A stretch of DNA of 64,000 nt from Schmidtea nova (lineage: Eukaryota), in the NCBI GenBank assembly GCA_044892505.1, contig CM097883.1, positions 228,966,001-229,030,000 of the forward strand, given 5' to 3'. The first letter of the stretch is position 1; every line of letters begins with the position of its first letter. The translations under genes and the position numbers were made by a program. The notes under the pieces were generated by a model. It searched no databases. It had not been told where the DNA came from and was given only the letters and a program-made list of their open reading frames with translations. Shown here in pieces: positions 40,790 to 59,600 of the stretch.

Positions 40790-42176
40790 GAAAGCTGTAA
40801 GGGGTATTTACCCTACTTTTATATAAACCTGAAATATATACATAAAATCGAATTTAATATCTTAATCTCAATAAGATTTTAATCTATTTTTTTTACGATC
40901 GATGAAACTTTAAATTTCGTATTATAGTAGAATCATTGTGCATAAGATTTACGATTCGGGATATACCAACTAAGCTTGAAATTATTTAATCCTGAATCTG
41001 TTTTTAATTATTCGACATTTCTACATATTTATAAAATAATTCAGCAATTGAGATCCAAATACTGGTAATATCGATATAAAGTGGAATTTAATTAAGATCC
41101 AATTATATACGGTGTATTATATAGATCTGGATTTGGTGAGATATCACTCGGATGTTTAATATGTAAAGCGCAAAATTACTTTAGAATACGACTTTTGAGC
41201 ATACAACCAAAGGGGACGAAATGAATATCACCGAATTCGGCAACTATCAAACAATAAATAAAGATTTTATATAAACATCGAGAATCTAATATCTTTCCGA
41301 CAACTACAATTATTTTACTAGCCATTTCAACACGATTACTATTAATTGGCTGTTGTAATATACTTTTAACGATATGCAACATGATGTTTTCTGGCAATTC
41401 GTTTCCAAGATATAATTCCGATAATAATTATATATGTAAAATTAGATAATATTTATTTCAATATAATACAATAGAACAGACTTTTGACTTAATATATGAT
41501 TGAAATATTTTTAAAAAGATCTAAATTTTTTTTATTTTTAGTGAAAGTCTTTTTAGTCAATTTTTTTTCAAATTCATCTGAATGTAGTTAATGTTTGCAT
41601 CATAATCTTCTATTTTAGGATTTTTTTAGACTTTTGTTGTGTTTTGTCATTAATTTGTTTACTGATGTTTCTCATTACAAATTTTTAATTCACGTCGTGT
41701 GCGGTGTCTGAATTATTCTGTTCTCACTATTATAATTCGTGATCAAAATTTTTATTTGTTATCTCTTAGCAAAAAAATTACGACTTAAGAGTGCTGGTGT
41801 GTTGGTTAGATTGACAACTGAGATCCTTATGATTTTATATGTTAGGGTGATCTCGCCAACATAAAAACATTTCCCCGCTGACACCCATGATGTATCCCTA
41901 ACTACTCATCATGTTGGTGCTGTGTCAACGTTGTGAAATGACAAGGCAGGTGAGCAACCTTTCGGCTACTATTCCCTTGTTTATTCACGGGTCCACCACT
42001 ACCGATAGAAGGTGTCTGTGGCTTTCTTTCGGTCCCACTTATGCTCTTTACTTTGCTCTAGGGTTGATTCAATGTTATTACATCTGCGGCTTTAAATGAA
42101 TCCGAGTTTTAGTTATATTCCATTCTCAGTCATTCCACAAACAAACGAGACAAGTCAAATCATTCATTTTATACAT

Positions 42177-42776
42177 TTATTTGTAGTTCAACAATACAGA
42201 GGGTCGGATTACATTTAGTAGTTCTTGCTCGGATAGACCACTGAGCAAGTCTACCTCTATTCCTACGCGATCTGCATAGGCGCGTCTTTCCCTGCGCTTT
42301 TTCGCTCCTAAGCGATTCCGTCTCTTTGTGCGTTGTGAGCCTGCGGGAATTGTATTTGTCACTGTAGTAGCCGTGGCTATGGTCGATGCATTCTCTGTTT
42401 GGGTGCTCGTAGTCACCGCTATCGTGTCTATCCATCGATTAAAGGTGCTAGCCCTGATTACTGGGCGTAGTTGTTCGGTGATGAAGTCGCGGGTCGATGC
42501 CTTCAAATAATTCGCCAACTCCAATTTCAGGGCTGCAATCTCTCTGGCATGTTCCTCAGCTACTCGTTCTGCCCTGTACCTAGCCTGCAGGATGGACTTA
42601 ACCCGCTCTGGGTTAAACCAGGTAGTCTTAATCCGCTGATGCTCCTCATTCAGCTGCCTTAATCGATTCTCCAGCACCCGTGCGCGCGCCTTGTGTTCTC
42701 GCGCCTCTTGCTTGAAGTCTCTGCCCTTGGGTTCCGTCATGTCTGTAAATATATCATTAATGTTAGTATATGTCAT
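42177..42776 (-). CDS. LTR-region ORF, 199 aa: coiled coil, Thr-rich linker, Arg/Lys-rich basic stretch
   Basis: Intact ORF with QRTKRRNRLGAKKRRERR; AATAAA overlaps the stop codon. Confidence 0.7.
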   Translation of the reverse strand: MTYTNINDIFTDMTEPKGRDFKQEAREHKARARVLENRLRQLNEEHQRIKTTWFNPERVKSILQARYRAERVAEEHAREIAALKLELANYLKASTRDFITEQLRPVIRASTFNRWIDTIAVTTSTQTENASTIATATTVTNTIPAGSQRTKRRNRLGAKKRRERRAYADRVGIEVDLLSGLSEQELLNVIRPSVLLNYK

Positions 42777-42931
42777 GTGTCTGATTTTTCGGTCATCCTA
42801 TCGTCATTAAACAACTCCGTTCTATCATCATATTATTTCCATGCGCTCGAAAGAAAAACAAAACAAGACCGTTTTCACACAAATACATATATTTTGTAAC
42901 TACGACAATCATTCTCTCTCGGCTGCGACCA

Positions 42932-43567
42932 TCAACTGAAGGCCCTCAAGTCCTGATCGGCAGGATGCTCGTCGCGACGAATTCCATTCTCCCAATACAT
43001 TTCTGGGGCTGGGGTCCAACTCAGCTTATCTTTGTAGATAAACACCTCCCAGAGGCGAAGCTCCTCGGACTCGGGGTGTTGTTCCACGGACACACTTCCT
43101 GGTGCATTGGAATAAGTGAAGACTTCCTCAGTGTAGCGACACCGAGGCCTGTCTAGCAGCAGGTATCCTAATTGGAAAAGAGCCCTTCCGGTCATCATTC
43201 CATTGCTCAATACCCAGCGGGGTCGTCTCTGCTCGTCGAGAAATTGGAAGAACCATCTATCGGTCCTTGGTTCGGCAGGGTCCATGGTGGACATCCAATC
43301 GGGGTCTCCTTCCCATCGTAATTGTATCGTGAAGGCGCAAGCCGGAACATCTGCGGCTGCACTCATATGGTGTCTTGTCCACCGCCGTAGGTGGCGACGC
43401 GCAGTTTCGCTAATTCTGCGTGGGGCTTCCATTTCTCCCTCGATGGTAAGGATCCTCCTTGGCCGGACGACGGAACGGATGCGTCGTGGTTTCCGGACGA
43501 CATAATCTTCCATTTTCATCTGTCGATAGGTGCTCGGACTTCTTTGATATTCTTCGGTCTTTATCAT
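42932..43567 (-). CDS. LTR-region ORF, 211 aa: Arg-rich N-terminus, Trp-rich globular C-terminus
   Basis: Intact ORF; strong splice acceptor cttcttgtcttcag 4 nt before the ATG. Confidence 0.7.
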   Translation of the reverse strand: MIKTEEYQRSPSTYRQMKMEDYVVRKPRRIRSVVRPRRILTIEGEMEAPRRISETARRHLRRWTRHHMSAAADVPACAFTIQLRWEGDPDWMSTMDPAEPRTDRWFFQFLDEQRRPRWVLSNGMMTGRALFQLGYLLLDRPRCRYTEEVFTYSNAPGSVSVEQHPESEELRLWEVFIYKDKLSWTPAPEMYWENGIRRDEHPADQDLRAFS

Positions 43568-44619
43568 TTTTCTGAAGACAAGAAGATGTGATTGTGATGA
43601 ATTTGTTAGGTGCGTGCAATTATTTATAATCGGCGACCTACTCGACTCAAGAGTAAGACTCTGTGGGTTGCCGTTGGTGTTTCAGTGTTAGATCGGTTCG
43701 ATGTTCAAGATAGTGGGTAGGTTGTATATTATCGTCATGTGGTTGAGTGTATTCACTATGTCAAGTTGCTTAACTGATTTGGCCACGCAAAAAATTCAGT
43801 TCAGTTTATGACAATCTGTATTCATTTATGATGATCACTTGATCATTTATTATATTAGAATGTCATCATTTCATAGACCATTTTGGTTTATATCTACAGC
43901 AATCATACTCACTCGCATCTCAGGTGTTATCTCCATACCTAATTTTCAATTAACAATGGTCACATCATCCGGGGAACATGTTCGACCCCTTACTCAGGTT
44001 AATTGGGTACAGATTGTGCTTGTATTATATTTCGTGGGACTATCCTTTGTACCCTTCGTGAGGCGTATTTATGTTGGGGCATCCTGTGGATTCATGGTTT
44101 TACTCCGACGCTAGCACTGTCAGCCTCTGAACTCACCTGCCTCATGTAGTGTATATCTCCATACTAACCCTTTGCACCAAACCGTCGTTACTCTACTTGA
44201 CTTCACGAACGCGGAACACTTCCTCGTCGATCAACCCGTCTTTTATGTAAACTCCTTTACTCGATGTTGTCGGGACAGATGATACGCCCTTCAATTACTT
44301 CTACCCATCCTGGGGTTATGATGACCTGAGATATCCGATGTGCCCTTCCCCCTTCCGCTTGTTAAATATTTAGAACACTTATGGTCCCGCCGCATCAGCA
44401 CCTCACAACCTAAAGATTGTGTTGCGCTGAGAGGCCCCAAGAATCCGTCAGGCTGTTAGGCCTCCGGAAAACCTTATAGATTTTATTATGGTTAGCAATT
44501 ATAATTATGAGGGTTTAAAAGACTAATACAACTTGAATTACCTTTTATTTATTTCCAAATTGGTTTCACAATGTTCTCAGTAGTCACAAACAATTCACCC
44601 TTGGTAAAGATAACATTGT

Positions 44620-44680
44620 CAAATACTGATTTGACTTCAGTATTTATACTCCACCGGTGTTGTTGGTTAGCCAATCAGCA
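44620..44680 (-). promoter_or_regulatory. Candidate LTR promoter
   Basis: ATTGG/CCAAT box 44671-44675, TATAAATA 44648-44641, TCAGT initiator-like 44629-44625 (TATA-Inr spacing slightly short). Confidence 0.5.
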
Positions 44681-45049
44681 TCGAGTATGTGTGTATGTTT
44701 GCTTCATTATTTTGTGTTGTCGGCTTTTTGCTGCCTAACTTAACTTGCCGATTTGTTTGGTTAATCATGCGGTAAGTTTTTCTTAGTCATCAATTTATTT
44801 TATTTTATTTTTGTTTTAGGTCTTTGGTGACATCCGCCCACGCGCTGTCATATTCCAATTTTATCTGCTTCGCATGAGTAAGTTTTGAAGATTTTTGTTG
44901 TTTTGATTAATATTTTATTTCTTTTAGATGTTGCCGCCTATTTTGTTACGCTTTGGTGTTGGTAATTTATTTTGTTGTTATTCTGTTGTAAATTTATTTT
45001 ATTGATTGTATATTATTTTCAGATGCTGCTCGATTTGGCTGGCCCAACA

Positions 45050-45085
45050 TCACTCGGGGTCCCCTTAAAATTGCGTCCCGCAATT
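45050..45085 (-). promoter_or_regulatory. Hairpin plus short polypurine tract preceding the LTR
   Basis: Minus strand AATTGCG-GGA-CGCAATT TTAAGGGGACCCCGAGTGA|TGTTGGG; the PPT is atypically interrupted. Confidence 0.55.
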
Positions 45086-45254
45086 ACATGCATACACTTA
45101 CATCAACATACATAAAAAGTTCGTGACAGAACTTACATGCAAAACCACATAAGGTGGTAGCTTTCATACTCATTTATACACAAAGTCACACATTGTCATT
45201 GTCATGTTTATATTGTTACACAGTTCAATGTTTCTGGCTCATAGGGGTTGATTT

Positions 45255-45779
45255 TCAGGTCCTTTCACTTGTTGACTGCATTTCGTATCGGGCTTGGATT
45301 TGTCGTAGATGGCTTCTCATTCTTTGTTGGGTTTTTGCTTCTCTTTTGGCACATCTACACATTATCATTTGTTGTTGTTTGAGGCTTCTGATTCGATATA
45401 GGGTATAGGTAATCACGATGATCAGGATGATTGTTAATATTGTCATTGTGACTATTCCGACGATGATCCATCTGTTTCGGATTTCGGATTCGATTTGGGT
45501 TTGACCTTTGATTGGCTTTAGCTGATCTTGGAATGTTTTATGGATTTCTCGGATCTTCTCGATTTGATCGAATAGGGTTTGTAAGGGTTTGCGATGATCA
45601 TGACTGATTCGCATTTGTCGGATTAATTGTTTCAAGTCTTCTCTGACTTCATTTAGTTGTTTTTCGATCTCCTGGGATATTTCATTTGACAGGGTTCTTT
45701 GAATTTCGGTTGTCGAACAGTTCATGATTGTTATGGTTAACATAGTTGTTAGGATTGGTAGGGTTTTGAGCCAGTTCAT
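45255..45779 (-). CDS. Accessory type I membrane protein, 174 aa
   Basis: Signal-peptide-like N-terminus, heptad-rich ectodomain, TM WIIVGIVTMTILTIILIIVITYTLY, basic Cys-containing tail. Confidence 0.75.
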   Translation of the reverse strand: MNWLKTLPILTTMLTITIMNCSTTEIQRTLSNEISQEIEKQLNEVREDLKQLIRQMRISHDHRKPLQTLFDQIEKIREIHKTFQDQLKPIKGQTQIESEIRNRWIIVGIVTMTILTIILIIVITYTLYRIRSLKQQQMIMCRCAKREAKTQQRMRSHLRQIQARYEMQSTSERT

Positions 45780-45852
45780 TTCTGATTATTCTACTGATTA
45801 ATACCTGTTACATCGATTTGTACATTTTTACACACGGATTTTTCGCCTCTTT

Positions 45853-47025
45853 TTACACATCCGTCTCCTCTGGTTCATGAAACCCTTCATCTTGGAGCTC
45901 CATTGGTGGTGGTGGTATAAACGGTAACCACACCACTCTGCTTCTCCACATTGCAATTTCATCTTGATACGTTCGAGAGATTTGTATCTCTTCATCTAAC
46001 AGATACTCCATATAGTCTGATTGTTCGCTCAGAGTTTCAATTTGTCTTTCCATCTCTTCCACTTTTCTCTTCATGTCTTCTACTTCTGTTGGTTCGGTTT
46101 CTACTTCTGTGGTTTCTTTCTCTGCTTTCAGGGTTATTATCTGCTGTTTCAGTTCCTCATTTTCTTTCGTCAAATTCGTTATATTCTCCTCGTAAGCTCG
46201 GTTTGATTCCGCATGTCTTTCCTTCACAGATTTCAGTTCCATTTTCTTTTGGGTCACCACCCCTTGATAACCATTTACATCTCTTTCCAGACTTTCTTTT
46301 TCCCTGATCAACTTTTGTCTTTCCGCTTCTTCTTTTTGTCTAATGCCTCGCATTTCTTCATTTATCATCTGTATTTGCCATTGCGTTTTCTTTAGTTCCT
46401 TTGCCTGTTCTCGAATAATTCGCTGTCGTTTTCGACTCCATTCCTTGTTTGTCTGTTCTTGTCGTTTTCTCTGTTCCAGTTCCTCTTTCAATTCGTCTAT
46501 CTCTTGATACAATTTCCAATCTTCGCTGTATGCTGTCTTTCTGATTATCTCTTTGGCTTCTTTATGCACTCGTTTCGACTCCATCTTCCAATGTCTCGCT
46601 TGAGCCTTGATTGCTAGTATTTTTACCTCCATCTTTTCCTCTTGTTTCTCCTGCTCTTCTCTTCGCGTTTTCATCATATTCCGGTAGTGTTCAGCTTGTT
46701 TTCTCATCAACTGATAGACCTCTTCTATCTTCAGTCGACTTCGTACATTCGTTCCTTTTAGCTTCTCTATTTGTGTTGTCAGTTGTACTATCTCTTTATT
46801 CACTTCCTCGAGTTCTAGTTGGTATAACTCCATTCGTCTCTCGCATTTTAGTTTCTCGTAAAAATTGTTCGTCATCACTTCGTGTAATTCTCTGGTTCTT
46901 TGTTCTACTTCCACTTTACATCTCCTTTCGATTTCTCTTTCGATTTCTCTTTCTATTGCTTCTTGTTCGTTTGACATCTCGTTTCTCGTTTCATCTTCGA
47001 TTACATGTGCATTTGCGTTTTCCAT
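45853..47025 (-). CDS. Accessory long coiled-coil protein, 390 aa
   Basis: E/K/R/Q-rich heptads throughout; ends ...PPPPMELQDEGFHEPEETDV. Confidence 0.8.
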   Translation of the reverse strand: MENANAHVIEDETRNEMSNEQEAIEREIEREIERRCKVEVEQRTRELHEVMTNNFYEKLKCERRMELYQLELEEVNKEIVQLTTQIEKLKGTNVRSRLKIEEVYQLMRKQAEHYRNMMKTRREEQEKQEEKMEVKILAIKAQARHWKMESKRVHKEAKEIIRKTAYSEDWKLYQEIDELKEELEQRKRQEQTNKEWSRKRQRIIREQAKELKKTQWQIQMINEEMRGIRQKEEAERQKLIREKESLERDVNGYQGVVTQKKMELKSVKERHAESNRAYEENITNLTKENEELKQQIITLKAEKETTEVETEPTEVEDMKRKVEEMERQIETLSEQSDYMEYLLDEEIQISRTYQDEIAMWRSRVVWLPFIPPPPMELQDEGFHEPEETDV

Positions 47026-47114
47026 TCTGTAATTTACAAATTTACACTTGTTATACTATACGTTTATTGTTGTCGTCGATTTTTACACTTTATTTACAGG
47101 GTCGTTCACTCTGA

Positions 47115-48527
47115 CTACTCTAACCATCCTTTCGTTGACTTCGTGTTCATCACTGTTGTACTTGCTTTCTTTTCGATCTCCAACTCTACATATAAGTTGT
47201 CGTCGTACAACATCTCCCACATTGTTTGGTGTGGTATGAATTTTGGTTCTCCAGTCGCTAATGAACATTCTGTGGTTGGTCTTTTGTAAGCTTCGTGCTT
47301 ACCATCAATTTTGAATACTCTCGCTATTGTTTCTTTCGAGTTTTTCACTCTCATTATAGCCTTTGTTTCTAGTGGCCATTCTAATATGTCGTCGTAACCA
47401 CCTTTACACAACGCAAAGAATAATGACACATGCGTTTCTTTTCCTGATCCATCTCCATTTGGATAAATTCTCATCCGGACTTTGTATCCGTTTTTCCACA
47501 GATAAAATGGTGGACTTGTTACCGACACTTGACTTCCTGCTTTTGCTGCTGCGAACTTGTCGTTGAAGTTCTTGATTTTCCATACATATGGTGCAACAGG
47601 TAAACTCTCGATATCCTCTGTATCTCGTATCCACATTTGGTGTCGTACATTTACTTCCTTTACTAATGTCTCTATGACTTTGATTTTCTCCATCATTTTC
47701 TCTCTGGTGAGCTCGAATTGTTCTCTTGTTTCTAGTAATAACTCCGTCATTATTCTCTGAGATTCGATTTCTTTTCCCAGCTTCTGTATGGTTTGTTCCA
47801 TTCCGTTCAAATTTGCTGTTAACATCTCGGCGTGTTGTACTGTTTCCGTTTCCAAATGCTCTTTCATCTCTTTGCTCGTTTTCTTTACTACACATCCTTG
47901 TTTACTCCATACGCACTTTCTTGGTCTTGATTCGCATTGTTCCCAATGTTCTCTCAACATCACTTCTTCTCCGGTTCCGCAATTACTTGGACAAATTCCT
48001 CGGAATTTTCCGCACACTTTTTCTTCTGCTACGTTGAGATGTTCTGTTTCGATTACTTCTCTCGTCTCTCTTTGTTCGCAGTATTGACACTCTATTATCT
48101 CTGCTTTGCACTCGTCCTTGTGATTTTTCGACTGCTTGATGGTTATCGTCTGTTGACACTTTTCACATATCGCTTTCTTGTTTTCGCATTTCTCCAGATG
48201 TTGTCTTAGCTCGATTATTTGTCCTTTCCATTCACATGGTTGGTTTATACACTCTGTTTTTATCTTCCAGATCTCCTTTTGTATTGCTTTGTCTGGTTTT
48301 GTTTCGTTGATCAGTAGTTTATCGTCACACTCTGGACACTTTCTTGTCTCACTTTCACTGATTATTTGCAATATACACTTGGTGCACATCCTGCATCCAC
48401 ATTCCGTTTGCCTCGGTTTTAACAGTAGATTTTTACACTTTACACACGTCACATTTACTCCCCATTGTCGATTTTCTCCTCTTAGAGTTTCGATCGTTTG
48501 GTAATCTGCTTCGCTTTCTGCTCTCAT
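47115..48527 (-). CDS. Intronless TRAF-family protein (RING, TRAF Zn fingers, coiled coil, MATH), 470 aa
   Basis: RING CVKC..PRQTECGCRMCTKC..CPEC; CINQPCEWKG; MATH YVWKIKNF..SPPFY..GYKVRMRIYPNGDGSGKETHVSLFFALCKGGYDDILEWP. Confidence 0.95.
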   Translation of the reverse strand: MRAESEADYQTIETLRGENRQWGVNVTCVKCKNLLLKPRQTECGCRMCTKCILQIISESETRKCPECDDKLLINETKPDKAIQKEIWKIKTECINQPCEWKGQIIELRQHLEKCENKKAICEKCQQTITIKQSKNHKDECKAEIIECQYCEQRETREVIETEHLNVAEEKVCGKFRGICPSNCGTGEEVMLREHWEQCESRPRKCVWSKQGCVVKKTSKEMKEHLETETVQHAEMLTANLNGMEQTIQKLGKEIESQRIMTELLLETREQFELTREKMMEKIKVIETLVKEVNVRHQMWIRDTEDIESLPVAPYVWKIKNFNDKFAAAKAGSQVSVTSPPFYLWKNGYKVRMRIYPNGDGSGKETHVSLFFALCKGGYDDILEWPLETKAIMRVKNSKETIARVFKIDGKHEAYKRPTTECSLATGEPKFIPHQTMWEMLYDDNLYVELEIEKKASTTVMNTKSTKGWLE

Positions 48528-48617
48528 TCTACAACAATATTTACATCAATTTCCCCATATTTTTGATTTTTTCTGGTTCTTTATTTACACGTATTTACAC
48601 AGTTTTCCGCTTATTCA

Positions 48618-48968
48618 CTATACATCCTCAGTTGAATCTGGCTCTGGATACACGTCTATCTCATTTACAATCCAGCTCGTCCAACTATCCGGTATTTCTT
48701 CCTCTTCATGTCTCGTTAATCGGTCAATTTCCTCTGCTTGCCAGTTGTTCACTTCATTTAATGTTCGGTTCTCGTTCTGTAATTCGTTTATCTGTATTTG
48801 TTGGATCTCGATTTTGTTCATTGCTTCGCAATTACAGTTATAACTCTCGGTTAATAATTGCGTTTTTGCCGTCAACTGGCTCTGTAATTCATTTACTGTT
48901 CTGGCTAGCAGGTCACATTGTACTTTCCATCTTGTCATCGTTGACATCTCGATATTTTCTTGGTTCAT
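48618..48968 (-). CDS. Accessory short coiled-coil protein, 116 aa
   Basis: Heptad repeat plus acidic Trp-containing tail ending EPDSTEDV. Confidence 0.65.
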   Translation of the reverse strand: MNQENIEMSTMTRWKVQCDLLARTVNELQSQLTAKTQLLTESYNCNCEAMNKIEIQQIQINELQNENRTLNEVNNWQAEEIDRLTRHEEEEIPDSWTSWIVNEIDVYPEPDSTEDV

Positions 48969-49091
48969 TGTTTTTCTAGATTATATACATCATTCTCTTT
49001 TTTCTGTTTTTATGTTTTATAATATTTATACCCATACGTATACGGTTATGCATTGGTTTTTACACTATTATTTACACTCATATTCCACCCT

Positions 49092-52000
49092 CTATACCAC
49101 TATTACTGGTTTTCCTTCGTACAGTTCCTCGTCCTCGATCTGTACCCACATCTCTTCGTGTTTTGATCGTCTTTTTAGCTCTTCTCGTACTTCTTTTGGT
49201 AGTTTTATGTTGTAATTCGTGACCTTTACCTCTGGCCATTTTACTGCTATGGTCTTATTTCTCATGCCATATCTCCAACATACTATCATGATCGTTATCA
49301 GTGGTATACACGCTATGAATACTCCCATGCTGATTAATCCCATTACTGTTTTTCCAATGCTCATTCTTGGAGTCTCACTTTGGTTTATCATCACGCCGTA
49401 TTGACCTTTCCATTCTGCTTCCCATTGTTCATATTGTTGTTGTCTCCGTCTGACTTCTTCGATCACTTTCTCTGGTTCCCATTTTTCTTGTCGATTTGGT
49501 ATTGTTTCTTCCTTCTCGTTTTGTTCTCTCTTCTGACTCAATTCTCGGAATTCTAACTTTTTGATTCTCCTCTTTATCGGTGTGTAGTAGGTTTCGCACC
49601 TTTCTTGTGGATTTCCTTGTGTATCCACTTCTTCAATTGCACACACTACGTATTCTGCATTTGTTTTCAACTTCCTCATTTCTACCTCGATTGTTTCCTT
49701 TTTGTCATTTGATGTCTTTTGACAGTTTCGTGGAGACTTTCCCATACTGTTTGGCATTAATGTCCAACAGATTTCTAGGACCTTTTTATGGATCTTCCAT
49801 ATTATCAGAGTCGTTGATTCTGGTTCGTTTTCTATTGTCGTCCCTTCTGTTGTCTGTTGAGTTCCTTGACTGTTGGTTGTCGTGGTTCTTCTTGACTTTC
49901 TTTTCTTCTGCCGACTTCCTCCCATTTCGATCGTTCTTGTACCGTTAATTTGCTCTGGCGTCTTGTACAGTCTGCACTCCAGGCTTCTTTGTATTACTTC
50001 TCTTATTCTTCGGATTACGCAAATTTCGTAAGCTTGTCCGACTTCGAATCCATTTAGTTGAAACGGGATTCCTCGTTCTCTCGTTTTACATTGCGGTATT
50101 ATGTTGTTGGTCGATACTCCGATGTATTTTCTCCAACACATCCCAATTGTTCTCCGACCAATGTTTTTTATCTCCACTGTTACTACTTCATTTGCAATCG
50201 TTTCTTGATCTTGTTTCTTTCTTTTTGGGAACTCAATTATCTCCTTTGTTTGGAACACTTTACACTCGCTTGTTCCTGGTCTGTTTCCGTTTGCTGCTTT
50301 TTCCATGAGACATAGTTCACATTTTCTATCTGTATCTATTTCGGTTATCTCAATTTCTTCGTTTGTCTCTGCTTCTCGACTTTCTCTTGTTTCGCTGATT
50401 CCAATTACCTCATTGTTTCGTCCCCAACATCTTCCATTCGTTGTTCGTTGATCTTGGATGTTTACTAACGTCATCACGCTGATATCTATGTCCTCCATGA
50501 TTCTCTTAATGAGGATTAATATTAATGCTACACATATCAATTCTGGTTGGAATGTTAATTTGCCCGCTGGATTTTTGGTTATTCTTTCTTTCTCTGTTCG
50601 GTTTCTGATTCCCTCTTCAACTTCGGTTTGATTCTTCCCTTTCTCTGATTCCACTTCTGTTCTTCTCGTTGTCTCTTCGCTTCTTTTCTCAATCCATTTC
50701 TGTATCTTCAGCGCTTCCGTTGCTTTGTATAATTGGCATGCAGTTACTTGAGGTGCTTTTGGTTCTCCTCTCTGCTTTATTGCGCATATTATGTATGACT
50801 TTTCTTTCTCCAATCCTTTGATTTGGATGACGTCTCGCTTCAAATCTGACAATATACACTTCAGCGTATCGTTTTTCTTCAGGTTTTCTTTCCAGCATAT
50901 TCTTTCGTATACTTCATTTCCTCTGATTATCTCTAGCGTGACGTATTGTTTCTTGGCTTCTCCTTGTCCGATGATTGTTATCAATATCGCAATACACAAC
51001 ATTTCCGGTCTCAAAAGTAGACTTCCTGTTCGTTTTCCATAGTTTGTACGTTCGTCTTTTGTTCCATTGTTTTCTCGTTCTTCTGCTTCTCTTTTCTTGT
51101 CGTTTCTCGTTGGCTTCGGTTCTTCTTGTCTTTCTTTTTCATTATCCTCCGTTCTTTTGTTGTCATTGTCTTCGTTGCTCTCTTCGTTGTTGCTTTTGTC
51201 GTCGAAATCTCTGTAACCACCCCCTGGTCCTTTCGAAATGTCGTCCTCGACATTAATTTCTTCAATCAATCTTTCATACGCTTGAACCGCGAGTGTGCTA
51301 GACTCGAATTCACGTATTTCCATCTCCTTGGATGGTTCTATGTCTTTTAATCTACTTTGCTTGATCGCTTCTTTGGCATTTGCCCATTCATTCACATATT
51401 TTCTGAACAAGTCTTTCCATCTTCCTATTCGTTCCTGTTCCTTTGGATTGTTCGTGAATTTCAAATCTCTTCTCTTCAGGAATTCTTCTACTATCTCTGG
51501 CTTTTTGTGTCTCAATAACGCGCTTCTGATACACCAATTCTGATTCTGTTCCATATTGTCATTGATCTTGAATGCCGGTTCCTTGGTGATCGGATTCACC
51601 CATGTTAGTAATGCTCTCGTTTTCTCTATGTCGTGTATCATTACTGTTAGACTGAAGTTCTTTACGTTATTCACCAGGTATTCGATATCGTCTTGCTTCT
51701 TGATGGACTTTATGAACTTGATCATCTCGAAGTTGTTCCACTGTATTGCGATGTCTATGATGGAATTATTCTTTCCATTTTTCCCTTCGATTTTTGCTCC
51801 TGCTTCGTATAATTCATTTAGCACTTTAAAGTTCGTCTTCTTTCTTGCTGCGATTATCATGATTGTATCTCCGTTATCATCAACCGTATTCATGTCCGCT
51901 TCGCATTTGACCATTGCTTTCGTTATTTCTAGCACTTCGTTTTCTTTCTTTCGACGTAATGCCCAGTGTATCGGCAATCTCCCATCCTTTGATAATAGGA

Positions 52001-55000
52001 ATGCCACTGGCATTTGATTCTTGATTGTGTCCATATCACTCTCGTTATAATCTCCTTGTGCGTATCTGTGCACTTTCTCTGTAATCGCTCCTAGTATCTC
52101 CAACGAGTTTTTGTTCTCTCTGAATTCGGATAATTTTTCCTGTGCTTTTGCTACGATTGCGTTTAATCTCTCTTGATAATCAGCTTTTGCGTTGAACAAC
52201 ACTGCTTTGCTTCTTATTCGCGTTTGCATCTGTTTCATTCGTTGGTCTTGATACACTGCTTGTCTGAAGAATTGTCCATACTTCAATGCTTCCACCAGCT
52301 CTTTATATCGCTTGCTTATTTCTTTGTGCTGCTTTTGGATGTCATAGAAATGTTCGAAGCTCATATCCGGATTCCATTGCTTATCACACCATTTCTTGAT
52401 TAATCCGAATAGTTCTTTCTTCCTGTCTTCTAACTTGTATTCTCTTGGGTTTTCACTAACCCGTAGCGTATCTCTCGCTACTAACACTGCAAGGGTTTTT
52501 GGATCGTATGTTACTTCTAATAGATGTTTCAGTAACGCATTTTCTCCCCTTGTGAACACTTCATTACAATCTATGACCCACGAATCTCCTTCTGGTCGTT
52601 TCCACTTTAGCAATATTCTCCAGGTTTTACTGTTCTTTACCCCGATTGCTTGTTTCATGATTGATCCTCTGGTTAGTTCATCGATTTCCCACGTGGCATT
52701 TTCCGTAATATACTTCAGTATTCGGTGATTCGCTCTGTCAATTGCATGATTCAAGAATGTTCGTCCTTCTTTATCTTTTGCCATCCAATTCGATCTGGTG
52801 TTTCCGAATAGCTTGATTATTTCATCGTTTCTTCCGTGAATCGTCATCATCATAAGTGGAGTGATTCCTTCCCAATTCACTTTGTCAATTTCTCCTCCAC
52901 TTTCGAGTATCATTTCTACGATCTCCTTCACTTTCTCGTTTCCACTGTGCTTGATTACATTATGTAACGCGGTATTACCATCTTTGTCTTGTAGATTCAA
53001 TGTCTGAGGGATCTCCTCTAGCAGCGTCCTTGTTATTGGATGTGCTGTTCTATCCTTCGCATAGTCCATTACATTCTTTCGAACTTCTGACAGTATATTG
53101 AAATCGTGCCACCATCTCCATTCCGGTATAATTTCTCTGGTTTTCTTTGCCAGTTCTTTGATGTCTATTATCTCCCTTCGGTTGTCCTCTAGACTTGTTT
53201 GCGGCTTTTGTTGTACTCGCAACATATTAATTCTCGCCGTCTGTGATCTTGTCATCACCCGTTTCTCTGGTGATAGAGTTGCTGTCTTTGGTATTTTCCT
53301 GCATCGACATGCATTCACGTATATTGGTCTTACCAATGGATTGTTCACCAATCGTACTCGCACATTATTTTCATTTACTGTTGTTATTTCATATGGCCCT
53401 TTGTCTGGTCGTTGGAGTTTCTTGACCGTACCGGGTATTATCTCTGGTGTTTCGATTATCACCCAATCTCCAACTTTTAAATCATGTGCTTTCACATTCT
53501 TTTTCTGATCATGCAGATCCTTGTAACTCTCTTGATAGAACTTGATGTTTAGTTCCGCCGTTTTCCAGATTTCTTGCATTCTTTCTTTGAACTTTGTCAC
53601 GTAATCGTCAACCTCCATATACTGCGATAGTGGTGGTTGGTACTCTAAATCAATCGGTAAGTTGCAATCTCTTCCGTACATCAGTTGGAATGGACTTAGC
53701 TTTGTTGTCGCATGTATTGACATTCTGTATGCCATTAAACACAAGTTTATATACTCGTCCCAGTCAGTTTGGTGTTTACTGACGTAATTCGACAACATGC
53801 GTATCAATGTTCCATTGAACCTTTCTGTTTGTCCGTTCGTTTGTGGATGGTATGGGGATGTTCGTAATTTCGCAATTCGGAAGTAATTCGTAACTTCGTC
53901 TAATATTTCACTCATGAAATTTGTTCCTTGATCCGTTAGGATTTTCTTTGGTGTTCCGTATCTGCAGCATATCTCTTCCACCAATATTCTCGCGACTGTT
54001 TTCGCTTTTTGATCCGGTATTGCGAACGCTTCTGGGAACTTTGTTAGATAGTCCGTGACTACTAATATGTATTGATTTCCCTTCAAACTTTCCGGCAATG
54101 GTCCAACTACATCCATTGCTATCGTCGCCATAGGTTCTGCAGGTATTGGCATAGGTTTCAGTGGTGTTTTCCACTTTGTTCCGACGTTCTTTCTTGTCGC
54201 ACAGGTTAAGCAGTTCTTTATCCATTCCTTCACCTCATCTTCCATGGTTGGCCAAAAATACTTTTGTCTCAATCTCCCGATTGTCTTTTTTGCTGACATA
54301 TGTCCGCCTAATTTTCCGTCATGATATTGAGTCATGATTTCCTTTCGTCTGTTCGCAGGTAAGCACATCAATCTCCTTTCTCCATCCTGTATCAATAACC
54401 ATCCTTTTTCCATCACGTATCGGTGCTGATATTTCTGCATATGTTCGCGCAACGTTTGGTTCTTGCCGAATATCTCTATTTCCCTTTCTTTCAGATACTT
54501 GCTGATCAATCCCAACTCCTCGTCTTCGAGTTGATCTTTCCTTAATTCGCTGAAATCCAAATCCTCCGCTATTAATGCACATATTTTTAGAGCATTCAGG
54601 TTCACCAATTCTGGAAATGTAAACCTTGACATGCAATCTGCGTTTGCATTTGCTTTTCCTGCTTTAAACTTTATGAATGGCGAGTATTCTTGTAACTGCA
54701 TCGCCCAACGCATCAATCTACTTGATGATTCTTTGTGTTGACCTAACCATACCAATGGTTGATGATCCGTCGTGATATATATTTCATGACCCCACAGTAG
54801 GTACTTGAAATGCTTGATTGCCAATATTATTGCATAGGCTTCTCTTTCTGTGACTGAGTAATTCCTTTCATGCTTCCTGAACGTTCGACTATAATATCCG
54901 ATTACTCTCTCTTTGCCTTCTTCATCAAATTGGCCTAGTACTGCTCCTGCTGCGTATCCACTTGCATCTGTTGCCAACAGAAATGGCTTCTTAAAATCTG

Positions 55001-56408
55001 GATGGACCAGTATTGGTGCTGTAATCAGCTTATCTCGTAATGTTTCAAATGCTGCTTGCTGTTCTATTCCCCATATAAACGACACATCTTGTCTTACCAA
55101 TTCTTGCATTGGTTTTGATATTCCTGCATAGTCCTTGATAAACTTTCGATAATATCCACACAATCCCAAAGATTCTTGTATTTGAGTCACTGTCTTTGGT
55201 GGTGGACATTCTTTAACTTTCTCGATATTCCTTGGATCTGGTTCTTTTCCTTTTGCCGATACAATGTGACCTAAGAATGTCACTTTCTCTTTTGCCCAAT
55301 CGCACTTTGACGGCTTCAATTTCAGTTTCCATTGCCTTAATTTCACGAACACATTTCTGATGTCTTGTAAGTGATCTTCGAATGTTGCGGAGTAGATCAA
55401 TAGATCGTCGATGTACACCATGCATTGTTTTATGCCATGTGTTACGAAATTCATGCATCTCTGGAATGATGCTGGCGCGTTTGTTAACCCAAACGGCATT
55501 TTCTTGAATTGGTACAGATCTCGTCCGATTGTAAATGCTGTCTTCTCTTTATCCTCATCTTTCATTTTGATCTGCCAATATCCACTTTTTAAATCCAGTG
55601 ACGTGAAATAAGCTGCTCCTTGTAACGTCAATAACATTTCATTTATGTCTGGCAGTGGGTACGTATCTCTTTTCGTAACTGCGTTCAATCGTCTGTAATC
55701 GATACAGAATCTTTGAGTTCCATCCTTCTTTTTCACCATCACCACTGGGAATTGCCAGGGTGAGCAACTAGGTTCGATGACCTCTGCATCTAACATCTTT
55801 TGTACCTCTTCTTCTGCCACTGCTTTTTGAGCTTCTGCCAATTTATATGGTCGTAATGCGATTGGCGTTTCGTCCGTCAACGGTATCGTATGTAATGTTA
55901 CATCACATGTTCCTAAATCCAGATCTGATGCTGCGAATATATCTTTATATTCCATCAACAGTTTCTGTAACTGTACTTTTTGTCGTTCGTCTAACAACAC
56001 ACTGTCGATTTCCCATGGTAACTCGCCTTTGCCTTTCTCATTCTTGTCTGGTATTTCGATTTCGGACATGGGTGTCAATTTACCCAATCTCTCATTCTCG
56101 TATATTATCTTGTCCTCTTCGTCGAAATTTACCAGATTGATCGGTATTTCTCCTTTTTGGTTTATCGTAACCAATTCTCTTGCCATTGGTAATTCTTTCT
56201 TTGCTTCGAACTTCTTACTTGGTTCGAATACCATATCTCCCTTTATTGTTGAATCGATCTTGACATAACACATCATTTCATGTCTCGCTGGCACTACTAT
56301 TTGTTCCGCACTTGCCACTTTAACTTTCATTCTGCAGATTTTTCCTGTTCTATCTTTTAGCTTCATTGCTCCTAGATCAATTACGATCTCCTTGAACAGG
56401 TCTGGCAT
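49092..56408 (-). CDS. pol: Pol ORF, 2438 aa: PR C-terminus, RT, RNase H, IN, ankyrin repeats, FN3-like repeats, TM
   Basis: RT (RFCIDYRRLN, LDLKSGYWQI, MPFGLTNAP, YIDD at 55404-55415); RNase H (ATDASG, NYSVTERE, TDHQPL); IN (H-H-C-C, MDVVGP, TDQGTNF, YHPQTNGQTER, GPY); about 1,350 extra aa after IN. Confidence 0.97.
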   Translation of the reverse strand: MPDLFKEIVIDLGAMKLKDRTGKICRMKVKVASAEQIVVPARHEMMCYVKIDSTIKGDMVFEPSKKFEAKKELPMARELVTINQKGEIPINLVNFDEEDKIIYENERLGKLTPMSEIEIPDKNEKGKGELPWEIDSVLLDERQKVQLQKLLMEYKDIFAASDLDLGTCDVTLHTIPLTDETPIALRPYKLAEAQKAVAEEEVQKMLDAEVIEPSCSPWQFPVVMVKKKDGTQRFCIDYRRLNAVTKRDTYPLPDINEMLLTLQGAAYFTSLDLKSGYWQIKMKDEDKEKTAFTIGRDLYQFKKMPFGLTNAPASFQRCMNFVTHGIKQCMVYIDDLLIYSATFEDHLQDIRNVFVKLRQWKLKLKPSKCDWAKEKVTFLGHIVSAKGKEPDPRNIEKVKECPPPKTVTQIQESLGLCGYYRKFIKDYAGISKPMQELVRQDVSFIWGIEQQAAFETLRDKLITAPILVHPDFKKPFLLATDASGYAAGAVLGQFDEEGKERVIGYYSRTFRKHERNYSVTEREAYAIILAIKHFKYLLWGHEIYITTDHQPLVWLGQHKESSSRLMRWAMQLQEYSPFIKFKAGKANANADCMSRFTFPELVNLNALKICALIAEDLDFSELRKDQLEDEELGLISKYLKEREIEIFGKNQTLREHMQKYQHRYVMEKGWLLIQDGERRLMCLPANRRKEIMTQYHDGKLGGHMSAKKTIGRLRQKYFWPTMEDEVKEWIKNCLTCATRKNVGTKWKTPLKPMPIPAEPMATIAMDVVGPLPESLKGNQYILVVTDYLTKFPEAFAIPDQKAKTVARILVEEICCRYGTPKKILTDQGTNFMSEILDEVTNYFRIAKLRTSPYHPQTNGQTERFNGTLIRMLSNYVSKHQTDWDEYINLCLMAYRMSIHATTKLSPFQLMYGRDCNLPIDLEYQPPLSQYMEVDDYVTKFKERMQEIWKTAELNIKFYQESYKDLHDQKKNVKAHDLKVGDWVIIETPEIIPGTVKKLQRPDKGPYEITTVNENNVRVRLVNNPLVRPIYVNACRCRKIPKTATLSPEKRVMTRSQTARINMLRVQQKPQTSLEDNRREIIDIKELAKKTREIIPEWRWWHDFNILSEVRKNVMDYAKDRTAHPITRTLLEEIPQTLNLQDKDGNTALHNVIKHSGNEKVKEIVEMILESGGEIDKVNWEGITPLMMMTIHGRNDEIIKLFGNTRSNWMAKDKEGRTFLNHAIDRANHRILKYITENATWEIDELTRGSIMKQAIGVKNSKTWRILLKWKRPEGDSWVIDCNEVFTRGENALLKHLLEVTYDPKTLAVLVARDTLRVSENPREYKLEDRKKELFGLIKKWCDKQWNPDMSFEHFYDIQKQHKEISKRYKELVEALKYGQFFRQAVYQDQRMKQMQTRIRSKAVLFNAKADYQERLNAIVAKAQEKLSEFRENKNSLEILGAITEKVHRYAQGDYNESDMDTIKNQMPVAFLLSKDGRLPIHWALRRKKENEVLEITKAMVKCEADMNTVDDNGDTIMIIAARKKTNFKVLNELYEAGAKIEGKNGKNNSIIDIAIQWNNFEMIKFIKSIKKQDDIEYLVNNVKNFSLTVMIHDIEKTRALLTWVNPITKEPAFKINDNMEQNQNWCIRSALLRHKKPEIVEEFLKRRDLKFTNNPKEQERIGRWKDLFRKYVNEWANAKEAIKQSRLKDIEPSKEMEIREFESSTLAVQAYERLIEEINVEDDISKGPGGGYRDFDDKSNNEESNEDNDNKRTEDNEKERQEEPKPTRNDKKREAEERENNGTKDERTNYGKRTGSLLLRPEMLCIAILITIIGQGEAKKQYVTLEIIRGNEVYERICWKENLKKNDTLKCILSDLKRDVIQIKGLEKEKSYIICAIKQRGEPKAPQVTACQLYKATEALKIQKWIEKRSEETTRRTEVESEKGKNQTEVEEGIRNRTEKERITKNPAGKLTFQPELICVALILILIKRIMEDIDISVMTLVNIQDQRTTNGRCWGRNNEVIGISETRESREAETNEEIEITEIDTDRKCELCLMEKAANGNRPGTSECKVFQTKEIIEFPKRKKQDQETIANEVVTVEIKNIGRRTIGMCWRKYIGVSTNNIIPQCKTRERGIPFQLNGFEVGQAYEICVIRRIREVIQRSLECRLYKTPEQINGTRTIEMGGSRQKKRKSRRTTTTNSQGTQQTTEGTTIENEPESTTLIIWKIHKKVLEICWTLMPNSMGKSPRNCQKTSNDKKETIEVEMRKLKTNAEYVVCAIEEVDTQGNPQERCETYYTPIKRRIKKLEFRELSQKREQNEKEETIPNRQEKWEPEKVIEEVRRRQQQYEQWEAEWKGQYGVMINQSETPRMSIGKTVMGLISMGVFIACIPLITIMIVCWRYGMRNKTIAVKWPEVKVTNYNIKLPKEVREELKRRSKHEEMWVQIEDEELYEGKPVIVV
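51700..53000 (-). other. Two clusters of ankyrin repeats fused downstream of integrase
   Basis: QDKDGNTALH, VNWEGITPLM, KDKEGRTFLNHA (52700-53000); KDGRLPIHWAL, VDDNGDTIMIIAA, KNGKNNSIIDIA (51700-51990). Confidence 0.88.
53300..54340 (-). other. Integrase domain (HHCC, DD35E, GPY/F)
   Basis: YHDGKLGGHM..CLTC; IAMDVVGPL; ILTDQGTNF; QTERFN; KGPYEI. Confidence 0.95.
54680..55870 (-). other. Reverse transcriptase and RNase H domains
   Basis: Canonical Ty3/Gypsy motifs with YIDD catalytic box. Confidence 0.97.
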
Positions 56409-56690
56409 CAGGTCAGTTCCAATAATACATGGTACACTCAGCGATGGTATTACACGATGTACGTGTTGATCTCTGCACCTCGATGCTTAATTTTTACAAA
56501 CCATCTTCCGGCTACTTCTACTGTCTCTTGACTGCACGCGATTACATGTACGTTCGTCTTCTCAATTTCTCCTTGGTTTTTCTCGGGTATATAGTTAATG
56601 TCGATTGCCGAAATATTCGCGCCTGTATCGATCATTGCTTCGATTTCTCTTCCATTTATTTCTATGGTTGTTGTTAAAATCGGTCCCATA
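56370..56690 (-). other. Retroviral-type aspartic protease split across the ORF1/ORF2 junction
   Basis: IEINGREIEAMIDTGANIS (DTG at 56621-56629) in ORF1; C-terminal IPSLSVPCIIGTDL in the pol frame. Confidence 0.92.
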
Positions 56691-59600
56691 TTTGTGGACA
56701 TAACTGCTATCGTGTGCGTGTCTTCTAACGAGTTTACACTTCCACCTCGTTTTACTTTGCATCCCTCTGGAATTATCGGGTATATACTTGTCATCGGCAT
56801 CATCTGCATCATATTCGGCTTCGCTTTGTATATCGGTTCGTTATACATTGACTGAGGTGGAGCACTGTATCTCCAATTCTCAACTGCACTCTTTTCGTTA
56901 TACTGTGGAATCTGGTTTATATTCGCTTGTCCTCCTCGATCGTCATCGTCATCGTCGTCGTTACTTGAATCATCCTGCGTTCGATATCCTCTCACTCTTT
57001 CCCATAATCCTTTCCTTTCTTTCTTTAGTTGTCTTCTTGCTTGCTCGTCTTGCATTATCTTTTTGAATTTCCTTCCGACATCTTCGTTTGTTCCTTTCAT
57101 TTTTGCAAGTATCTTCAACAACCTCTTTATTCGATGTATGTCTTTTGAGTGTCCGTGTAACACCATCGTTTTCGCAAGGAATGGTAAAAATCCTACTACC
57201 ATTTTCCAATTCACTTTCTTTTCTCTCTTGTAGATGTCGAAACACGCTAACATTTGCGTTATTATCACTCTGACGATTTGTATTATCAATATAACACCCA
57301 GTATTCCCGCCATCATTTGTCCAAATATCAGGAATCTTCCCCACATTGCCTTCATCATATTTTCTGTGGCTTTCTTGAAATGTGCCGGTGACAACAACAG
57401 TTCGTAATTCGGTCCTTCTCGATAATTCGTTCCTCCCGTTATCGTTACGATATTTGACAGTAATGCTTCTCTTCTTGCCGGGAATAATATATTCTGCCTT
57501 GCTGCTTCCAGATCTTTTGGACTATAGATTCCGTTGTTTGAGACATCTACGTCACTGAACTGTCTATCCTTTGACAACTGCATTAGCTCAAATTCTCTTG
57601 GTGCTAATACTTCAGTTCTTCCTGGGAACATAACCCATTTGCCATCTGGCTTCTGATAAAGCGGTCCGTACGCGTTACTACAGTTGAATGGATTTGGTTC
57701 AAAACTTGGTGGATTGATGATTCTCGTCACCGGTTGAACATATCGTACTTTTCCTTTGTAATCGATTTCTAGTTCGTTTGTACATTGTCCAGGTTTCAAC
57801 TGCGTTGTTGCTGCTAGCGATGCGTGTGTCTTTTCACAAATGTATACATACATTGCCTCTCCAACCACTCTTCCGAAATGTCCTTCTCTCAGTGGTAATA
57901 ACGGCATCGCGCTATCTGGATTCGTAATCGCTACGGCCAACTTTGTCTTTAGTATTTCCCGATTCAGTATACAATCGTTGTTTATCAGATCATAATACAC
58001 TTTTTGCAATGAGGCTTGTCCTCTATGGAATAAGAAATCCATTTTATTATTCACATACAAGTGTAACTTGATATCCATTGTGTCGATCTTGGGTTTCGCA
58101 TTCGGCACTTCCTGCTTTGACACGTATATTCCTGGATAATTTGTTTCGTATACTGTTGTACTGCACTTAAGGGTTGCTTTCCCTTTTATGAATCTCATTC
58201 CCACATCCTGATTTGTGGTTATCAACACTGTTGGTGTGGCTCTCATCTCTATTCGTTTTTCTCTATGATCTGGTCTCAATTGTCTTTTGTTCTCTAAAGC
58301 TTCTTTGAGATGTTTTGCTCTAGCTTTGTCATCATCGTCCTCTTCCTGGAACGTTTTTCCTTGAATTTCGTCGAACTTTGCTCCTTGTAGCAGTTGTAAT
58401 TGACACTCGTTCACTTTTGGTTTGTATACCAATGTTGACATTCCCGTTTGACACATGCTCCTGTCAATTTTACACATGGATAACGTTTTCATTTCTCCTG
58501 TGGTCGGTTCGAAGAATGCTTCGTAGCTTTTCAGTTCGACTATATACGTATCCATTACCACTAAGTTGGTTGCAGGTACTCCAAATATCGGGTAGGTTTC
58601 TCCTTGACAATATCCTTCTCCTCCCGTAATCCGTCCTGCTACATAATACGTCTGCTGTAACATCATTCCTGGTTTTCCTTTTATCTTGATTTTATCTCTC
58701 GTTGTTACTTCTCCATGCTTGAATAATGCTTCACAGTCTTCTCCTTGCAACACGATTGGTTCTCTTTCTGTTCCTGGCATGACAATTGCTGAATAATGTC
58801 CTCTACCACAATAGAATGCGAATCTCGTCTTTTGTACTTTGCATTCATTCACCATTGTCTTTATGAGTTCTGCCTCTTGATACACGTGGTACCATTGTTC
58901 CTTTTTAATCTCTTTTAACTCTACTGGAGTTGCATCTTTGCATTGCTCCGTACCTCTCAATGAGTACTTTTCTCCTAACTTCATTTGATCACAATCAAAT
59001 ACTTCGAACGTTGTTACACCCTCTGTGCTTAACAACCATACTAGCATCATCATGATTATCGAGTTTAAATTCAACGTCGATCTTCCGTTTCCTTGCATCG
59101 TTTGTCTATTCTCCATTTCTCTCAATACTCCTTCGAGTTTCTTTCTCATCACGTTAGACCCTTCTTTTGTCTGGTTCTCTTTTATGAACTTTTCCCATCC
59201 TCCTTTCCTGAGGATATATGGTTCAATTTCTTTCTCGATAATCATCGCCGTATTTTTAATATGTCTTCCCATCGGACTTGACTTCGGACTTCCTCGGCTT
59301 AGCGTTAGTAAATTGTATATCGTATACGAGATTGCTACCAGATATTTGCTGTCCGTTTCTGCTCCGTTAAGTAGCCTTTTTATCAACATCGTGGTTCCTT
59401 GCCAATCCAGATGATTCGATTTTGTTTTTGCCTTTATCAATTCTGGCATAATCGGTGCTATTGCATTGTGTAGCATCCTTGCCTTTGTACTAGGTTCGTT
59501 TATCCGCCACAAATTCTTTAATTCCGGGTCAATTATTGCTAACACATCCATTATCGTTTTGGTGAGCCATTCTTCTCCTTGGCAGACTTGATTCTCTTCT

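Follow-up and report, generated by a model that had tools for sequence, protein, structure and literature searches.

Predicted common leader and candidate splice acceptors in a Burro-type giant retrotransposon of Schmidtea nova

The element and its open reading frames

We analysed a stretch of 64,000 nucleotides (nt) from Schmidtea nova (GCA_044892505.1, contig CM097883.1, positions 228,966,001 to 229,030,000 of the forward strand), hereafter the window, numbered from its first letter. Its minus strand, from 41792 past the window end, is a single long terminal repeat (LTR) retrotransposon of 29.5 kb, flanked by a 4-bp target duplication (CTCT). The internal region measures 22.9 kb, the Burro benchmark being up to 25 kb for the internal region and more than 30 kb in total. 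The 5' LTR (L021:4991-8248) lies outside the window, 26.2 kb upstream of the 3' LTR, with which it shares 99.94% identity. Besides a polyprotein, the element has seven accessory open reading frames (ORFs): a1, TRAF, a3, a4, a5 and a6, plus a RING finger ORF (152 amino acids, aa) outside the window, 3' of the primer-binding site. The coding features are listed below; AG stands for the end of the candidate acceptor and, here and later, a caret within a motif marks the predicted splice boundary.

49092 to 63985, minus strand: gag (CCHC)-env-like-protease plus reverse transcriptase (RT)-RNase H-integrase-ankyrin polyprotein, assigned with Pfam
48618 to 48977, minus strand: a1, 116 aa, AG at 48977-48976
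47115 to 48530, minus strand: TRAF (RING, zinc fingers, MATH), 470 aa, AG at 48530-48529
45853 to 47028, minus strand: a3, 390 aa, AG at 47028-47027
45255 to 45783, minus strand: a4, 174 aa with a hydrophobic stretch, AG at 45783-45782
42932 to 43585, minus strand: a5, with pyrimidine tract, AG at 43573-43572 and ORF at 43567-42932 (211 aa, no Pfam match)
42177 to 42766, minus strand: a6, with branch-like CTAAC/TTAAT at 42766-42756, AG at 42744-42743 and ORF at 42740-42177 (187 aa, no Pfam match)
41792 to 45049, minus strand: 3' LTR, 3258 bp, TG...CA ends

The first long ORF matched Pfam families for CCHC knuckles, for a fusion protein of Monjiviricetes type and for a protease; the second matched those for RT, RNase H, integrase and ankyrins. 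The Gag knuckles (PF00098) are in ORF 63985-56450, at the N-terminus of the giant polyprotein, and the mononegavirus-like env (PF24664, E 2.9e-68, aa 1913-2253) is in frame between gag and the protease (at 2439). The polyprotein comprises 2511 + 2438 aa with one break, which agrees with the size of Burro ORF1 (~4,900 aa). The break of the present copy falls within the protease, near 56450; the same 2 kb was open in 4 of 7 other copies, so the ATG of pol is internal and could serve as a control. Pfam also found ankyrin repeats and a full MATH/TRAF. A BCL2-like region before env had no match in Pfam or PDB; it aligned at 30% with another family, H, in which the corresponding region itself gave only weak PF00452 matches. 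No BIR domain was found among the nine ORFs of the element that were scanned, while a relative, family E, has one.

Burro (GYPSM1) elements of planarians approach 30 kb and combine a CCHC Gag, a mononegavirus-like env, ankyrins and TRAF with a polyprotein of ~4,950 aa (PMC6431247). That paper also lists BIR among the Burro motifs, without attributing it to each family. The elements abound in planarian genomes, with TRAF, IAP and BCL2-like modules. By its domains and layout, the present element belongs with them as a giant Ty3/gypsy retrotransposon of Burro type.

The family is large: 90 TRAF copies, scored from 3303 candidates, were 96-100% identical. Of ten of the closest TRAF relatives in a profile search that were looked up, three were named from the triclads Dendrocoelum and Dugesia, which points to a triclad host; the other protein-level search returned just three distant TRAFs, vertebrate-type or unnamed. 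Dozens of clustered MATH-domain matches in short open frames were present at G000:C2:405-455 Mb, probably an expanded host TRAF family. The window contained no tRNA gene, and an Rfam scan of three LTR-bearing loci gave a single weak chance match.

Acceptors, leader and 3' ends

A preliminary description of this DNA had pointed out a YAG^A (Y, pyrimidine) 1-7 nt before the ATG of six ORFs. All six were present on the minus strand, with gaps of 7, 1, 1, 2, 4 and 4 nt, and the RING ORF begins with ttcag^gggATG. For a6, the YAG noted at 42776 exists and the start assigned to it was wrong. That ATG was kept in 10 of 20 LTR copies (L001-L020), the others having CTG, ATA or AGG, and only 2 T occur in the 12 nt before its CAG. 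The conserved ATG lies 36 nt away, at 42740, with TTTACAG 2 nt upstream; as it was found in 35/35 copies, we rejected 42776. Both a5 and a6 are inside the LTR and hence also present in its 5' copy.

In the window, a YAG occurred within 7 nt of 131/556 element-strand ATGs (24%), which gives p ~2e-4 for six of six; the figure for the whole element was 167/725 (23%), and shuffling spacer by spacer gave a probability of 0.21-0.26 per site. A YAG preceded by at least 4 T in 12 nt was found at 5% of ATGs, compared with 6/7 accessory ORFs of family A. The internal pol ATG, our control, had no YAG within 30 nt. Judged against these backgrounds, the start-context motifs are real and not chance matches.

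Conservation of the YAG in diverged copies had been put forward as a test, and the YAG was indeed retained, both across LTR subfamilies and in the distant family E. The counts for a5 and a6 are from 35 of 45 sequences, ten without a full a5 or a6 match being left out; L115 was dropped because it had no element match, and L036 and L039 end within the LTR. At a5, a YAG stood 4-9 nt before the ATG in 35/35 copies (CAG in 20, TAG in 15) with protein identities of 60-100%. It was preceded by a mean of 8.5 pyrimidines in 10 nt, YTRAY was found in 25/35, and the AG-ATG gaps (4, 5, 6, 7 and 9 nt) covered all three phases at one site. At a6, the YAG was 2 nt before the ATG in 33/35 copies and YTRAY was present in 31/35 (protein identity 74-100%). 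The YAG was also kept in 42/43 (a1), 42/44 (TRAF), 43/43 (a3) and 43/44 (a4) copies, a weak test since these regions are ~94% alike. The RING acceptor was kept in 13/14 loci and not found in one.

Family E, detected by means of its BIR domain, consists of nine tandem ORFs without gag or RT: RING, protease-ankyrin, homologues of a1, TRAF and a3 (27-38% protein identity), a BIR-RING IAP and three unknowns. A YAG was located 0-6 nt before the ATG in 8/9 of them, compared with 70/395 background ATGs, and the ninth had a strong tract at 20 nt. The a1 homologue (38%) starts with gacag^aaATG and the a3 homologue (27-28%) with tttcag^aATG, while in the TRAF homologue ttttag^aATG is found at Met19, which aligns with the start of the element's TRAF. 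From this pattern, the YAGs of the accessory ORFs are very probably working 3' splice sites.

The CAG noted 10 nt before the gag ATG is there too (CAG in 7, TAG in 6 of 13 copies), and its role as an acceptor is doubtful because it has just 3 T in 12 nt and includes the third base of an Asp codon that belongs to a stop-free frame of 121 codons. A U-rich AG lies ~480 nt upstream of gag, with no AUG after it and with a counterpart in family F. The stop-free, AUG-free frame itself (L021:985-1470; 149 codons in L132, 100 in family F) has an in-frame TGA upstream in 13/13 copies and may represent a non-AUG start or a long 5' untranslated region. Two sets of tandem repeats (L021:1850-2340 and 2660-3260) are located in the 4 kb that separate the 5' LTR from gag, and family F has a tandem array in the corresponding region.

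The LTR and the spacers between ORFs carry the following putative signals.

44641 to 44678, minus strand: predicted promoter P1, with a CCAAT-type ATTGG box and TATAAATA at 44648
44542 to 44617, minus strand: predicted common leader exon, ~75 nt, start site set by the distance from the TATA box
44536 to 44553, minus strand: AATAAA hexamer fused to the candidate major donor AAG^GTAATT, GT at 44541
44131 to 44139, minus strand: CAG^GTGAGT, the donor of the preliminary description, subfamily-specific
43621 to 43628, minus strand: TATA box P2, 56-58 nt before the a5 acceptor
47028 to 49091, minus strand: spacers of 123, 90 and 89 nt (plus 73 nt before a4), UGUA-rich, with AATAAA at 48585, 47094 and 47068

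The idea of a single LTR donor serving the ORFs was retained as the best model, with a donor other than the one originally named. The latter, CAG^GTGAGT, is present (its GT, at 44136, follows the TATA box at 44648 by 512 nt) and is the sole AG^GTRAG on the element strand in 41000-64000. We rejected it as the major donor because it lies in a hypervariable part of the LTR, was retained in 4/44 other copies (any AG^GTRAG within 1250 nt after the TATA box: 6/44), and would give a 481-nt leader with five AUGs, one of which (AUG AGG CAG) crosses the junction, out of frame with most ORFs. Three contigs that end exactly at 44136 were likewise rejected as a splice signal, a G/T polymorphism at 44137 accounting for them.

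P1 was found in 44 of the 45 other copies fetched (the exception being L115), and the candidate donor at 44541 in 45/45 LTRs (GTAATT 37, GTATGG 5, GTATGT 1, GTATGA 1, GTAAAT 1), always as AATAAA(A)G^GTA or AATACAA^GTA. Its GTA was invariant despite variable flanks, and +4A and +5G were never both lost. Eight short-LTR copies (L086-L089, L095, L106, L107 and L114), in which 0.9-1.3 kb instead of 2.85 kb follows the TATA box, are without a5 and a6; all eight retain a donor of the 44541 type, and their internal cassette is still ~94% identical. A 267-aa ORF near L114 was considered as a replacement within the LTR and ruled out, as it sits past the LTR end.

Between these conserved flanks the leader was hypervariable, with 12 types less than 80% alike among the 45 LTRs. 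From TATA+35 to the GT, the 12 types contained no AUG (19.3 expected), as opposed to 18 (16.2 expected) in an equal length past the GT, and the first AUG was always at or after the GT. Controls made of the same letters were found 27 (AGT), 31 (TGA), 23 (GTA), 6 (TAG) and 7 (GAT) times in the leader. In many copies an ATG coincides with the predicted start, and in 10/45 its frame stays open through the donor; we assumed this ATG to be too close to the cap for use, an assumption that depends on the inferred start site. Between the donor and a5 the LTR reaches its highest variability (44330-43500 is mostly unalignable between copies), and this stretch resembles an intron. In families E and F, a conserved TATA box is followed by a hypervariable stretch of 100-361 nt and then by GTAA and a U-rich tract; seven dissimilar leaders contained 2 AUGs versus 42 expected (29 by a Markov model over 8 rows). 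Because the first ORF of family E is ~6 kb downstream, its AUG-free leader would make sense only if joined on; a discarded outron would not need to be AUG-free, so this feature counts for use in splicing.

The spacers measure 73-191 nt overall. Six of them contained 18 UGUA, compared with 4.0 after shuffling, and those of family E 29, compared with 5.0 (0/5000 shuffles in both cases). AATAAA follows a1, TRAF and a6 (at 42181 for the last). These are likely internal 3'-end signals, although UGUA could alternatively be a Pumilio or forkhead element. In 35/35 copies the TATA-like box P2 preceded the AG of a5 by 56-58 nt, with an initiator-like sequence ~30 nt further on; it is likely an internal promoter for a5. 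The predicted start of its RNA is ~27 nt before the AG, so that in most subfamilies 7-9 nt would separate the cap from the branch motif, which in the present one would lie upstream of the cap. Such an RNA would probably be too tight for trans-splicing at the a5 acceptor, which therefore fits an upstream transcript; a5 likely has both an unspliced (P2) and a spliced mRNA.

Some observations concern other parts of the window and other families. On the plus strand, a candidate host exon of 477 nt (15489-15965) is bounded by tttcag^ and CAG^GTATGT. A tandem array with a 49-nt unit occupies 16263-18004, and related inverted repeats of 58-65 nt at 5399-5514, 15074-15210 and 24561-24697 represent a small palindromic element. 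L041-L060 are a separate gypsy family of 15-17 kb with env inside a ~3360-aa polyprotein and one accessory ORF of 470-480 aa; its intact copies have a U-rich TAG 3-6 nt before this ORF. Family E (L061-L068, L077-L080) is related to Burro and shares LTR ends with family F, and two of its copies sit within near-identical head-to-tail repeats of 21-22 kb. Family H (L141-L156, ~14 kb) has a polyprotein of ~3030 aa that includes env and weak Bcl-2 matches; a second ORF overlaps its end, and the family is without a spaced accessory cassette.

Explanations for the expression of the cassette

The explanation that we favour, with a probability of about 0.55, is cis-splicing of a single cap-proximal leader from the LTR to alternative acceptors at distances of 1-25 kb. 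Transcription would start ~30 nt after the TATA box of the 5' LTR, whose donor copy would be the working one. The ~75-nt leader would be joined to a5 (1.0 kb), a6 (1.8 kb) and RING (3.3 kb), probably also to the U-rich acceptor ~480 nt before gag (6.3 kb), and to a1, TRAF, a3 and a4 (21.8-25.0 kb). Every mRNA would then have its own ORF as the first AUG, probably as the last exon, and since UGUA/AAUAAA after each stop would likely end many RNAs locally, the products would be a common leader with alternative last exons. At the donor, the adjoining AAUAAA would act as the poly(A) signal of the LTR, active in the 3' LTR and masked by the U1 small nuclear ribonucleoprotein in the capped 5' LTR. 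Being modest or weak, the donor would let some full-length genomic RNA escape. As in complex retroviruses, the sequence has a putative cap-proximal donor after an AUG-free leader and a candidate acceptor before each ORF; the spacer UGUA/AAUAAA point to internal ends, whereas in complex retroviruses all mRNAs end at the 3' LTR.

Several points weigh against this explanation. To reach the acceptors of a1-a4, the donor would have to bridge 22-25 kb and pass over four closer acceptors as well as several poly(A)-like signals, and the evidence from the leader supports splicing to some acceptor, not to all. a5 carries a conserved TATA box of its own, and the 44541 motif could be a mere poly(A) signal with a GU-rich element. 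The low counts of TAG and GAT indicate that part of the AUG deficit is compositional, making it weaker than the mononucleotide figure suggests. The donors of families E and F were defined as the first GTAA and are weak (AAT^GTAAGG, AAC^GTAAAT). Strict YTRAY is absent at a1, a3 and all but two family E ORFs; the consensus sequences used (GURAGU, YURAY, YAG) are general ones, not derived from the host. Met19 of the family E TRAF and the a6 start at 42740 were picked after conservation had been seen. The copies share ancestry, so their counts are not independent: those retrieved had the highest scores, the LTR ends are common to E and F, and the independent samples amount to two lineages and about a dozen LTR types. 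Finally, in four sequencing runs none of the 15 joints listed (of 17) and none of the 24 loose ends listed (with 753 more) fell at the acceptors or at either donor; these runs look like DNA and are no evidence either way. A search of the genome with patterns for retrocopies with changed letters before the TRAF and a3 starts gave no match, which is uninformative, such RNAs being without a primer site.

It is possible, though we consider it less than probable, that the distal a1-TRAF-a3-a4 cassette is instead an operon, pure or mixed, cut by 3'-end cleavage and resolved by spliced-leader trans-splicing at the next YAG. The LTR leader would then serve the near acceptors only, and most of the nine ORFs of family E would likewise be trans-spliced. 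This would dispense with introns of 22-25 kb, and it agrees with the short same-strand spacers (73-123 nt here, 94-327 nt in family E), with the enrichment of UGUA in them and with the AATAAA that precede the acceptors of TRAF and a3 by 40-66 nt. Flatworm spliced leaders end in AUG; the presence of all three phases among the AG-ATG gaps of a5 gives no sign that such an AUG is used. Spacers below the published operon cut-off of 300 nt are found throughout the distal cassette and in 6/7 cases in family E, and flatworm acceptors often serve cis- and trans-splicing alike (PMC12582326). Planarians do trans-splice (PMC10899757), and the gypsy element Cer1 takes SL1 (PMC3315495). On the other hand, both families have a conserved upstream donor and an AUG-free leader, whereas an operon should have no competing cis donor; where such a donor is present, it usually prevails over the leader RNA (PMC4558846). 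The genomic RNA would also be cut if every spacer were cleaved. That the element is a true spliced-leader operon, i.e. a selfish LTR element using host trans-splicing for four to nine mRNAs, appears doubtful to us. If it were, mRNAs for TRAF, IAP, RING and membrane proteins would be cut from one transcript, and the gag-less family E would consist of mobile operons of apoptosis and ubiquitin regulators.

We regard as unlikely that the ORFs are expressed as unspliced mRNAs, each from a separate small internal promoter, with the YAG and pyrimidines acting as part of a downstream promoter element or of the start context. This fits the TATA-like box at a near-fixed distance from the a5 AG and the TATAAATA ~55 nt before the AG of a1. 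TGTAAA, a non-functional TATA variant in other systems, replaces TATAAA in the TRAF, a3 and a4 spacers. At a6, no TATAAA occurs within 110 nt in 35/35 copies, yet the branch motif, tract and YAG are kept. In the gypsy elements Tor3b and Tor4b, env is expressed from an internal promoter without splicing (PMC4402516). Internal promoters would leave the conserved donor and the distant-ORF leader of family E unexplained, and as far as the motifs go they would account for a5 only. Still less credible is that the motifs are chance matches or unused relics of captured host genes, the ORFs being reached by re-initiation or leaky scanning or being little expressed. About a quarter of ATGs do have a YAG nearby, conservation among the closely similar a1-a4 copies says little by itself, and the a6 and gag sites first proposed resemble chance matches. 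Yet the acceptor survives unalignable spacers, protein identities of 27-38% and CAG/TAG swaps, and the T-rich context sets the accessory YAGs apart from the bulk of ATGs.

Burro elements, spliced gypsy env (PMC13669377) and multi-acceptor retroviruses are already known. In the literature searched, including the treatment of Burro in PMC6431247 and PMC11410931 (the founding paper and its supplement being outside this scope), we found nothing on the expression of accessory ORFs in Burro. What would be new is that, in a Ty3/gypsy element, a single variable leader serves seven to nine modules of acceptor and ATG. If splicing of one leader onto 7-9 acceptors, likely with separate 3' ends, is correct, a Ty3/gypsy element would have reached the level of expression of complex viruses. 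Such an arrangement would allow new host genes to join as modules of acceptor and ATG and so account for the growth of these elements, and in planarian transcriptomes element transcripts would resemble ordinary monocistronic host TRAF or IAP mRNAs. The hypervariable shared leader would be the fastest-changing part of the element, as might be expected, speculatively, of a common target of PIWI-interacting RNAs, and this could represent an escape from small RNAs. The analysis predicts the exact junctions.

Comparison with known systems

HIV and HTLV use one cap-proximal major donor and many weak acceptors. The present element differs from such complex retroviruses in being Ty3/gypsy, in having predicted introns of up to 25 kb and in its likely internal 3' ends, and no Rev-like factor was identified in it. 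The adenovirus major late unit joins a common non-coding leader to many ORFs, with acceptors near their AUGs and with poly(A) sites at several places over ~25 kb; adenovirus differs as a DNA virus that need not retain a full-length unspliced RNA as its genome.

The cassette resembles spliced-leader-resolved operons of flatworms and nematodes in its short same-strand spacers and in the 3'-end signals before the acceptors, and spliced-leader RNA genes have been reported for Schmidtea species (PMC10899757). Cer1 of Caenorhabditis elegans is trans-spliced at one 5' site, without an operon (PMC3315495), while here a conserved cis donor lies upstream. For a flatworm LTR element, a donor-first rule has been described (PMC4558846).

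Like Burro, the element has a CCHC Gag, env in frame before the protease, RT-RNase H-integrase, ankyrins, TRAF and tandem repeats in the 5' region. Unlike in Burro as described in PMC6431247, TRAF is a free ORF downstream of pol, not inside ORF1 as in Burro1 nor an upstream accessory ORF as in the Burro of D. tigrina, and two ORFs are located inside the LTR.

In errantiviruses (gypsy of Drosophila, Tirant, Kuruka; PMC13669377) and in Tor3a of Oikopleura (PMC4402516), env is made from a spliced subgenomic RNA. The arrangement predicted here, an RNA started in the LTR and a conserved acceptor before the downstream ORF, is similar; these elements have one such ORF, whereas there are seven to nine here and env is within the polyprotein. 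Foamy virus has its donor in the R region of the two LTRs, and its poly(A) site is controlled by the binding of U1 (PMC3694450). The order of the two signals is reversed in the present element, with the hexamer just upstream of the donor, and their fusion suggests a U1-dependent masking of 5'-LTR polyadenylation similar to that of foamy virus.

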